Made by a program: the position numbers and the translations under genes | The notes under the pieces: model-generated | The model's database searches: none | The model's input: the letters and a program-made list of their open reading frames with translations, nothing else | What the model was told of the DNA's origin: nothing | Shown: in pieces, positions 55,494 through 63,747 of the stretch | Layout: each line of letters starts with the position of its first letter | Numbering within the stretch: position 1 is the first letter of the stretch | From: a virus | Direction: 5' to 3' (one strand) | Virus record (IMG/VR): IMGVR_UViG_3300036790_000425 | Span: 64,001 to 128,000 of that record | DNA: 64,000 nt

Positions 55494-57029
55494 TCAGGTC
55501 CCGGTCGCAGAAGCGTTCTGCTGCGACTGAGCGGCCACCAGGCCGGTGGACAGGTCCACCGACATCTGCACGGTGATGTAGTTCAGCGGCGCCGCCGGCA
55601 GGTACTGGAAGGTGACGGAGATCACCGTCGGGTTGCCAGTCGGGTAGGTCTGCTGGATCACGGACAGATTCGTGTAATCCACGATCACGTCATTGCTGAT
55701 CGCGGCCTCCAGGATGCCGAGCACGGCCTCCTGAACGGTGGTGACGGTATTGGCGGTGATCGGCTGGCCGATGAGCCCGGACCCCTGGAGGCCCTGCTTC
55801 ACCGCGACCAGGAGCGTGTCCGACTGGCGGACCAGGGAGATCTCCTGGAAATTCAGCGCGCTCATATCGGTCGTGAGTCCCTGCCGGCAGGCCAGGGCCC
55901 CGGCGAAGTTGATGTAGCAGATGCTCACGCCCGAGGACGCCAGGCTGTTCATGAAGGCGTTGGTCATCCGGGCGATGTCAGCCTGGGCCAGCCCGGGGAA
56001 GCCCGACAGCGGCTGGTTGGTCAGGCCGGTGTTGACCGGCAGCGAGGTCAGGATGGCGCCCAGGGCGACAGCCAGGTAACAGCCGGCCGCCTGGAAGGTC
56101 TGGCCGGTGACCGAGTTGAACATCGGCACGACCTCGGGGAAGGCCAGGATCGTGCGCCGGCTGGCCAGCCCGGCCGCGAACGTCGGGACCGACTCGTCAG
56201 TCTCGGAGTAGTTCCGGGGGAAGCCGAAGAAGCCCTGCCGGGGGAAGCCGTCGCTGTAGGCGCTCCACATGGCCGCGTCCAGGCCGGCCGCCAGGCTCGA
56301 TGCCAGCGCGGCCACGGTGCCGGAATTGACGGTCAGGTCGTCAGTGAAGACCGGGACCACCACGGTGGCAGCGCCCTGGGTGGCAACCCGGCTATAGGCC
56401 GCGCTGAACTGCTCAGGCAGGCCCCCGTCAGCCGGGTTGAGCGCCACGCAGATCAGGGTGGTCGCCCCGTTGGTGAAAGCCACCAGCGCGGCAGCCGTCA
56501 GCGGGTTGTCGATCTGGGAGGCGTTCGCCGCGCCCGGCGCCGTGGCCAGGAAGGCCTGGCCGTAGGCGGTCACCACCGACTGGTAGTCAGTGAAGACCTG
56601 CGGCTGGTAGTAGCCCGAGTCAGCGTAGTTGTAGGTGACCGTGACCTGCTGGCCGTCGGAGACCGCCGTGGAGTCGCTGACCCGCACGATGCTCGTGGTG
56701 GCCAGGCCGGGATCGCCTGAGGGATCAGTGACCGTGGTCAGGCTGTAGTCCGTGCCGGGAGTCAGCACCGTGCCGTCCAGCAGGGTCACCACCGGGGCCG
56801 TGATCAGCGGCGGGCCGGATACCTCGGTGGTGAACACGCCCATGTAGGTCAGCGGCACCGAGGACGCGGCCGAGATCAGCAGGCCCTGCACGGCGGTCCG
56901 GAAGCCCAGGGCCGGGCCCACCAGGGTGAGCACCTGGGATGGCACCAGGGTCGGCACCACGATAGGCGTGCTGACGTCCTCCACAAAGACGCCCGGAGGC
57001 TGGTATGTGCTGAAAGACGGGATGGTCAC
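55494..57029 (-). CDS. Contractile tail sheath protein
   Basis: Y.PPGVFVE at the N-terminus. RQGLTT, EIS.VR..D, V.F.Y.P..PLNYI.V at the C-terminus. Confidence 0.92.
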   Translation of the reverse strand: MTIPSFSTYQPPGVFVEDVSTPIVVPTLVPSQVLTLVGPALGFRTAVQGLLISAASSVPLTYMGVFTTEVSGPPLITAPVVTLLDGTVLTPGTDYSLTTVTDPSGDPGLATTSIVRVSDSTAVSDGQQVTVTYNYADSGYYQPQVFTDYQSVVTAYGQAFLATAPGAANASQIDNPLTAAALVAFTNGATTLICVALNPADGGLPEQFSAAYSRVATQGAATVVVPVFTDDLTVNSGTVAALASSLAAGLDAAMWSAYSDGFPRQGFFGFPRNYSETDESVPTFAAGLASRRTILAFPEVVPMFNSVTGQTFQAAGCYLAVALGAILTSLPVNTGLTNQPLSGFPGLAQADIARMTNAFMNSLASSGVSICYINFAGALACRQGLTTDMSALNFQEISLVRQSDTLLVAVKQGLQGSGLIGQPITANTVTTVQEAVLGILEAAISNDVIVDYTNLSVIQQTYPTGNPTVISVTFQYLPAAPLNYITVQMSVDLSTGLVAAQSQQNASATGT

Positions 57030-62731: not shown

Positions 62732-62986
62732 CTACTCCCCCGCTGGCGCGTGCTCGTGCTCCCGGCCGGTGGTCTCCCGGTACAGGTCGGCCGCGATCTT
62801 GCGGGCCAGGCGGGCCTCCAGGAGCGCATCCTGGGCCGCCTTGCTGCTCTCCCGCCGCATCCAGCTGACGGCGCGCGACAAGGGCCTGCGGGCCAGGTAG
62901 GCGGCGACCACGGTGATCAGGGCCTCCAGGGGCATCGCGCCGATGTTGCCGCCAACCCAGGTCCAGTAGCGACCGAACACCGGCAC
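62732..62986 (-). CDS. Small membrane protein
   Basis: One hydrophobic segment followed by a charged C-terminus. Confidence 0.55.
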   Translation of the reverse strand: MPVFGRYWTWVGGNIGAMPLEALITVVAAYLARRPLSRAVSWMRRESSKAAQDALLEARLARKIAADLYRETTGREHEHAPAGE

Positions 62987-63020
62987 CTCCCGGGCTGCTC
63001 ACATCTTCTGTGGGCAACGG

Positions 63021-63117
63021 CAGAGCCCCTGGCGCCGGGGGCGAGTCCAGGGGCTCTGATGCAGGAACACGGGGGCAGAACCTGCTGTGGCGGGAGGCCG
63101 GGGGTTGCATTCCCGCC
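63021..63117 (-). ncRNA. Candidate 6C-like sRNA with three hairpins, each with a CCCCCG loop
   Basis: TAATCT -10 box (63125-63130) 7 nt upstream. Stems GGCGGGA/TCCCGCC, GCAGG/CCTGC and CAGAGCCCCTGG/CCAGGGGCTCTG. Confidence 0.65.
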
Positions 63118-63187
63118 GGGGTCAAGATTACCCCCGGGCGGACTGTTTACTCGGACCTGGCGATCCAGGCGATTCCGCCTGCAACCT

Positions 63188-63409
63188 CTAGCCCGTGAGC
63201 GGCCCCAGCACCAGGGGAGCCGGGTGGCGCACCTGCATGCCGAGCATCTCATCAAGAAGCAGCTGCCGGCGGAACCGGCTCAGGTCCTCCTGCTCGGTGA
63301 AGTAGACCATCAGCTCGCGCCGCAGGACACGGCCCTGGCGACTCCGCCGGCTCCGGGCAGCGCGATCGGGGCTGCGGAGGGAATGCCGGAGACGCTGATG
63401 CCGGCTCAT
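63188..63409 (-). CDS. Small basic hypothetical protein
   Basis: ATGA-coupled to the upstream gene. Confidence 0.45.
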   Translation of the reverse strand: MSRHQRLRHSLRSPDRAARSRRSRQGRVLRRELMVYFTEQEDLSRFRRQLLLDEMLGMQVRHPAPLVLGPLTG

Positions 63410-63747
63410 CCCGGCAGGAACTCCAGCATCAGCTTCCCGTCGGTGATCCTGGCGCGATACCGGCCCGTCTGATCATCTGGCGGCCCCGGCAGGGCATGGA
63501 CCAGCAGGTGCACCGGGCAGGAGAACAGGTCACCCAGCCGGTCGCGCAGCGGGTGCCGGACGGTGTAGCTGTCGGCTCCGAAGACCACGACGTGCTCGGT
63601 CTCCCGGTCGGACAGGATCTTCTGGGCTGCGCCCTGGTCAGGGCAGTCCGGGCCCAGGCAGGAGATCATCCCGCCGGCCATCAGGTGCAGGGTCTCTCCG
63701 CAGCCCATCGGGCAGCAGGCGCCGGCAATATCACGGATCGGTGGCAT
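63406..63747 (-). CDS. Cys-rich hypothetical protein, probably leaderless
   Basis: CPMGCG.TL, C....CP, H.L..RL..L..C..H. TAGGAT-N6-ATG. Confidence 0.7.
   Translation of the reverse strand: MPPIRDIAGACCPMGCGETLHLMAGGMISCLGPDCPDQGAAQKILSDRETEHVVVFGADSYTVRHPLRDRLGDLFSCPVHLLVHALPGPPDDQTGRYRARITDGKLMLEFLPG

Follow-up and report, generated by a model that had tools for sequence, protein, structure and literature searches.

A conserved array of C-rich-loop hairpins ahead of a late gene in an uncultured soil phage is probably a regulatory RNA element

Among the riboregulators known to work without a chaperone in high-GC bacteria, small RNAs with C-rich loops are the main kind. We know of none inside a phage structural operon, and to our knowledge the regulatory RNAs of actinobacteriophages are almost unexplored. 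Promoter-proximal leader RNAs that end at a terminator before phage late genes include the lambda PR'-tR' 6S RNA and StxS, and RNA antitermination sites include boxB/nut and HK022 put. C-rich loops are typical of actinobacterial sRNAs (PMC2764107, PMC6486639, PMC3765725); beyond 6C they are found in other M. tuberculosis and Streptomyces sRNAs and in S. aureus RNAIII (cited in PMC2764107, PMC3765725). B11/6C is 93 nt long, starts from a SigA-type promoter, carries C-rich loops, and ends at a poly-U terminator (PMC2764107, PMC6486639), and pairing of the 6C loops with G-rich ribosome-binding regions needs no chaperone (PMC2764107, PMC6486639, PMC3765725). Cluster K mycobacteriophages carry SAS and extended SAS elements with a 13-bp consensus that contains a Shine-Dalgarno core; some SAS copies have an inverted repeat ahead of them (PMC3203893).

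The locus described here lies on a 162,435-bp virus record of 70% G+C, from which a stretch of 64,000 nt (bases 64001-128000; hereafter the window, whose numbering is used unless genome positions are named) was analyzed. The virus is an uncultured soil phage of high-GC bacteria. We infer an actinobacterial host because the product of a DUF6085 gene near the array matches phages of Mycobacterium, Rhodococcus, and Streptomyces; this neighbor was the only query to match isolated phages, neither the DNA query nor the p674 protein having any match among isolated phage genomes. No relative of a conserved 299-aa neighbor was found in bacterial genomes, which thus gave neither a prophage nor a clue to the host. 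The genes near the array all lie on the minus strand, in the order DUF6085 gene, p73, a 201-nt gap, p84, and p674 (Table 1), and the array itself occupies the non-coding 201-nt gap, in a block of neck and tail genes.

The p84 gene, which always comes after the C-loop module in the relatives compared, encodes a small protein with a single hydrophobic stretch that appears to span the membrane; Pfam, PHROGs, and the protein atlas returned no match for it. The start chosen by the open reading frame rule, a GTG at 62986, overlaps the Shine-Dalgarno sequence, and p84 probably begins instead with the GTG at 62980, making a protein of 82 aa, because there the 5-nt Shine-Dalgarno spacing fits and the codon aligns with the ATG of the closest relative. 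On the other side of the gap, the first 33 residues of p73 (63310-63409, minus strand) are very Arg-rich (11 R) and resemble an arginine-rich RNA-binding motif. When p73 is compared by eye, unaligned, with small proteins of the relatives, only the C-terminal part appears to be common; the Arg-rich N-terminus, absent by eye from the relatives' proteins, may be an effect of GC composition or of a wrong start.

Table 1. Positions of the array, its neighboring genes, and recurring motifs, in window coordinates
Feature	Position	Strand	Remarks
DUF6085 gene	63406-63747	minus	
p73	63188-63409	minus	gene upstream of the array; 73 aa; stop codon 63190-63188
G-run CCGGGGG	63131-63137	minus	directly 5′ of the hexamer; kept in the closest relative; complementary to the C-loops
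TAATCT	63130-63125	minus	-10-like TANNNT hexamer; 7-nt spacer to HP1
HP1	63117-63089	minus	7-bp stem; 15-nt loop; C5 at 63104-63100
HP2	63085-63061	minus	5-bp stem; loop contains UGCCCCCGU, the clade loop consensus
HP3	63058-63021	minus	12-bp GC stem; C5 loop
Degenerate leader-motif copy CCACAGAAG..GTGAG	62998-63013	minus	copy of CCCCRGAAGnnGTGAG
p84 Shine-Dalgarno sequence GGGAGG	62986-62991	minus	predicted to be paired
p84	62732-62986	minus	gene downstream of the array; 84 aa by the open reading frame rule
p674		minus	next gene after p84; 674 aa
Tail sheath gene	55494-57029	minus	farther downstream of p674
Leader-motif copies	13781, 24101, 25109, 25228, 39944, 48023, 48719, 52609, 54504, 57051	minus	
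Strong promoter-like class	13693, 14182, 15868, 16882, 17500	minus	
Strong promoter-like class	6968	plus	

An earlier note on this DNA had described, on the minus strand, a hexamer, a short spacer, and three hairpins with CCCCCG in their loops, and these proved exact to the base in both position and sequence, with one CCCCCG copy in each loop (63104-63099, 63075-63070, and 63041-63036). RNAfold returned the three predicted hairpins for the 111-nt stretch at -55.0 kcal/mol, against -40.2 +/- 3.5 for shuffled sequences (z = -4.2), and 0 of 200 shuffles were as stable. For an isolated RNA of 109 nt, the predicted mean pair probability of each helix is 0.99-1.0 and the three C-runs are predicted to be unpaired at 0.99, 0.88, and 0.61; in the HP3 loop, internal pairing is predicted to leave about three C free. 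CCCCCG is rarer in the window than expected (80 sites vs 196 +/- 14), so that its occurrence three times on one strand in a span of 70 nt is a true cluster. Among the 526 other intergenic hairpins of this genome, in a tally that counts HP2, only 8 have loops with C4 or more, and just 2 have G4-containing loops that might serve as a partner. The scarcity of CCCCCG agrees with the depletion of G-runs in mycobacterial genomes (PMC6486639).

The earlier note had been concerned that an alternative fold might dominate. The isolated RNA keeps its three hairpins, but longer transcripts behave differently: in read-through contexts HP1 is out-competed in two of three cases (pair probability 0.02-0.38), HP2 stands at 0.98 in two and at 0.0 in the longest (371 nt), and HP3 remains at 1.0 in all three, the global folds varying with the transcript context chosen. 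Because only the longer transcripts lose HP1 or HP2, the alternative fold is of consequence only where transcription begins upstream of 63118; the G-run directly 5′ of the hexamer, for its part, could mask a loop only in transcripts that start farther upstream. As a universal pseudoknot partner this G-run was rejected, since it is found in some lineages only.

Relatives of the locus were fetched from viral and metagenomic contigs with p674 and the highly conserved 299-aa neighbor, and the sequence ahead of the p84 homolog could be read in 12 distinct versions. All 12 have two or three hairpins at the same place, with C-runs in their loops and stems that are unrelated even between close pairs, a count that, like the other counts of conservation here, overstates independence since the 12 versions are phylogenetically related. 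The loops are thus kept in homologous loci, against the loss that the earlier note had named as grounds for refutation. The loop UGCCCCCGU, or a near variant, is found in at least 7 of the 12 versions, and the fold z-scores range from -1.9 to -6.7. Three further lines bear on what was selected: i) C4 or longer runs lie in 19 of 31 predicted hairpin loops, against 4.2 +/- 1.9 in dinucleotide shuffles (maximum 10; none of 200 reaching 19); ii) the strands are asymmetric, with a C:G ratio of 554:387 and 21 runs of C5 or more against a single run of G5 or more; and iii) codon periodicity is absent, third-position GC being 0.63-0.89 in no consistent frame as against 0.85-0.96 in the flanking genes. 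Because C-loops exceed the shuffles, the strands are skewed, and gene-like third-position GC is missing, the element is on sequence evidence non-coding, strand-specific, and selected for its loops, in agreement with the earlier description of a non-coding, sense-strand RNA feature. We conclude that this is a real, uncatalogued RNA element, and that its role is probably regulatory.

HP2 and HP3 are homologous to the two hairpins of the closest relative, and HP2 to the first hairpin of relative L009; the HP3 stem, read by eye against the closest relative, has changed on both arms in matching pairs. The 33-nt insertion that contains HP1 is unique to this phage and absent from the closest relative, and by comparison of the two sequences HP1 is a newly gained, lineage-specific hairpin, once more with a C-run. 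The C-loop array was never found apart from the p84 leader in the relatives compared, and the module accompanies p84 rather than the variable upstream genes. In one relative (L004:2104-2520) the place of the array is taken by one hairpin, a promoter-like site (TAGAAT), and a gene whose product by eye looks PadR-like, an arrangement that suggests a cassette insertion at this junction.

From 5′ to 3′, the conserved module consists of TANNNT, a spacer of 5-9 nt, the C-loop hairpins, a terminator-type hairpin, a CCCCRGAAG leader, and the ribosome-binding site. In 11 of the 12 relatives TANNNT precedes the first hairpin by 5-9 nt (background 0.13% per position). Its distance to the upstream stop codon ranges from -5 to +58 nt, which ties the hexamer to the hairpins rather than to the gene ahead of them. 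This phage shows no -35 element near the hexamer, none is conserved among the relatives, a simple promoter and terminator scan made no call at the locus, an intergenic scan based on the hexamer showed no clear promoter class, and TAATCT falls outside the phage's own strong promoter class.

At the other end of the array, the last hairpin of the relatives is a 13-bp helix with four compensatory pairs, and in 10 of the 12 it is followed at once by a U-tract of three or four U, the combination of GC-rich hairpin and U-tract that characterizes an intrinsic terminator. HP3 holds the position of this hairpin and has a similar stem sequence, and is followed by just two U in the next 8 nt, so that the combination is missing here. 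Because neither this phage nor its closest relative has the U-tract, a discrete 3′ end in this phage is doubtful. Directly behind the terminator-type hairpin, the relatives have a leader that hardly varies, CCCCGGAAGnnGTGAG, followed by a G-rich Shine-Dalgarno sequence, and in their consensus fold the C-run of the leader pairs with the G-run of the ribosome-binding site. The covariation for which the earlier note had called is thus present in the helix of the last hairpin but weak for this leader pairing, because most of the bases involved are invariant. In the phage itself, the p84 ribosome-binding site (62992-62985) finds its complement in HP1, in a segment that covers part of the loop and of the 3′ arm (63098-63091), and the p84 Shine-Dalgarno sequence is predicted to be unpaired with a probability of only 0.0-0.16 in all read-through contexts.

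Likeness to 6C, the central comparison of the earlier note, held in part. As in 6C/B11 (RF01066), the module has adjacent hairpins with C-run loops, more C than G, a length of about 100 nt, a putative -10 element at its 5′ side (the hexamer, in 11 of 12), a 3′ terminator-type hairpin with U-tract in most relatives, and an action that would consist of pairing with G-rich sequence resembling a ribosome-binding site. Unlike 6C/B11, it is not scored by the 6C model, is phage-borne, has two or three loops on freely varying stems, and in every case is joined to a single late gene's leader; U-tract and -35 element are both missing in this phage. The proposed covariance-model check failed to place the locus in the 6C family: at gathering thresholds nothing in Rfam matched the locus in a search of the whole window, a 1-kb region searched at E <= 10 gave nothing at the locus and did not list 6C, and seven relatives searched at E <= 5 gave no match at the gap. 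The best match of the 6C model in the whole phage scored 12.8 bits and lay elsewhere, against a gathering cut-off of 47 bits, in a weakly controlled comparison in which no control genome reached that cut-off. A separate sub-threshold match, to YrlA (Y RNA-like), was seen in one relative (L011:8651-8756; 39 bits, E = 5e-5, cut-off 69), where it adjoins a weak tRNA match.

Like C-rich-loop sRNAs generally, the module would have single-stranded C-rich loops as its presumed seed and need no Hfq; unlike it, those sRNAs, RNAIII for example, are cellular genes. It shares with lambda 6S RNA and StxS the order of promoter (here a candidate), short structured RNA, and terminator-type hairpin directly ahead of late genes, and with boxB/nut and HK022 put the conservation of hairpin loops rather than stems, but it has no sequence or protein homology to any of these, it is located midway along the structural region, and for it antitermination is only a candidate role. 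A literature search found no phage element comparable to the C-loop array. The principle is known from 6C-type RNAs; what is new is the phage setting, the array of several loops, and the fusion to a late-gene leader. The locus thus offers a phage element with what would be a 6C-type working surface, shared by a clade and linked to the switch to neck and tail genes: a small (about 100 nt), easily mutated object for studying the timing of late expression in such phages, and one that allows us to ask whether phages borrow the C-loop/G-rich pairing code of their hosts.

The fold and its conservation are shown, as are the terminator helix, the hexamer, the skew between strands, and the complementarity. 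We propose that the module is a promoter-proximal leader or attenuator RNA whose C-rich segments pair with a G-rich ribosome-binding site and so control the flow into p84 and the neck and tail genes, a tentative reading to which we assign a probability of about 40%. Transcription would start a few bases past TANNNT, at the foot of the first hairpin, and the RNA would fold into two or three hairpins presenting single-stranded C-runs. In most relatives transcription would end at the terminator-type hairpin and its U-tract, freeing a short RNA some 75-125 nt long, while read-through past this hairpin would yield the leader of the p84 mRNA. The C-runs would be the working surface, pairing with G-rich, Shine-Dalgarno-like sequence; the p84 ribosome-binding site may be masked by CCCCGG of the leader motif in the relatives and by the HP1 loop and 3′ arm here. 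In this way the module could set the amount of both transcription and translation entering p84 and the neck and tail genes. The short terminated form would be an sRNA-like molecule and could act in trans too. A leader or attenuator is preferred because the module shares the layout of B11/6C yet never separates from the p84 leader, and the comparison favors a role in cis at least as much as the free, host-directed mimic of the earlier note.

That mimic would be a free-standing, trans-acting sRNA, a functional analog of 6C whose C-loops shut off host mRNAs, or other phage mRNAs, with G-rich ribosome-binding sites. The order of candidate promoter, C-loops, and terminator-type hairpin is indeed that of B11/6C (PMC2764107), the C-runs are exposed in the predicted fold of the isolated RNA, and 6C works through C-rich loops without a chaperone and inhibits mycobacterial growth when overexpressed (PMC6486639, PMC2764107). 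CGGGGG also occurs in the ribosome-binding site of a few phage genes, p674 among them. Yet a search of the phage's ribosome-binding sites for complementarity to the loops gave only scattered sites of partial complementarity, forming no gene class and showing no conservation, and the p674 site is not kept in relatives; the 6C model is unmatched, the array is always joined to the p84 leader, and this phage has no U-tract, so that we regard a free sRNA as doubtful. It is likewise unlikely that the array is the passive end of the upstream transcription unit, a terminator or insulator with 3′ hairpins that protect against exonucleases, after which the late-gene motif restarts or marks the next unit and the C-runs have no partner. 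The array does stand between two gene blocks, its last hairpin with U-tract resembles an intrinsic terminator, and other junctions in this genome have a strong hairpin with a promoter directly behind; but the phage's other strong intergenic hairpins carry ordinary loops, the module goes with p84 and not with the variable upstream genes, and neither termination nor stability would need a loop motif kept on unrelated stems or the gain of an extra C-loop hairpin.

Loops conserved on stems that are free to vary, as in boxB, directly upstream of a terminator, could instead be binding sites for a protein, either loading an antitermination complex in the manner of nut/boxB or acting as a CsrB/CsrA-style decoy that mimics the first 7-8 bases of the leader motif, CCCCCGG being common to two of the three loops and to motif copies of the form GCCCCCGGAAG. 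Arnvig and Young raised a C-rich-binding chaperone as a possibility (PMC2764107). On the other side, the GAAG half of the motif is missing from the loops, no neighboring RNA-binding protein is conserved, the upstream genes differing among relatives, and the Arg-rich N-terminus of p73 is by eye apparently unconserved; protein binding is accordingly quite unlikely in our judgment. Least credible by far is a chance product of GC-rich sequence or the coding of a proline-rich peptide: GC-rich DNA folds readily, and two of the loops would read as Pro-Pro in a frame that is open from TTG 63125, but the shuffle tests and the conservation in 12 relatives oppose chance, third-position GC differs from that of the flanking genes and in no consistent frame, and indels between close relatives do not preserve a frame throughout. 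A coding or leader-peptide reading was rejected, codon periodicity being absent, and a Rho rut site is unlikely in a region that is not poor in G (30%) and is heavily paired.

A broader and speculative scenario, which we think improbable, is that this clade of large soil actinophages expresses a multivalent C-loop RNA early, from a host-type promoter, to mimic host 6C-type sRNAs or to act as decoy for a factor that recognizes the late-leader motif. If true, a single small RNA would at once control passage into the neck and tail genes and reprogram ribosome-binding sites rich in G, and multivalent C-loop RNA would be a class of phage riboregulator undescribed so far in Actinobacteria.

The leader motif itself is not confined to p84. 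The window has 10 copies of CCCCRGAAG, which is often extended to ..nnGTGAG, where 2.1 +/- 1.5 would be expected. Every copy is on the gene strand, and the motif sits 5-45 nt ahead of many late or structural gene starts; relatives have copies too. Like the SAS of Cluster K, it is short, asymmetric, in one orientation, and just upstream of many starts. Unlike SAS, it differs from the 13-bp consensus, lies upstream of the Shine-Dalgarno sequence instead of containing it, and is found in the late structural region, with 5-45 nt between it and the start; nothing in SAS corresponds to the C-loop array. A late promoter, a translational signal, and a processing site are all candidate roles for the motif. 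A second C5-loop hairpin, with a 14-bp stem, lies outside the window at genome 147131-147095 on the minus strand (about 83131-83095 in window numbering), 12 nt upstream of a leader-motif copy, and is the second such pairing.

Together with a strong promoter-like class seen in the same genome, the late-leader motif could aid the annotation of transcription units in these uncultured genomes. That class has a TTGCTC-type -35 element, a TACAG..TTTCTTGC block, and then TAAnnT, in about 21 copies; besides those in Table 1 there are about 15 more genome sites, and no copy of the class lies within the long structural block at about 82-133 kb. Its members are probably early or middle promoters.
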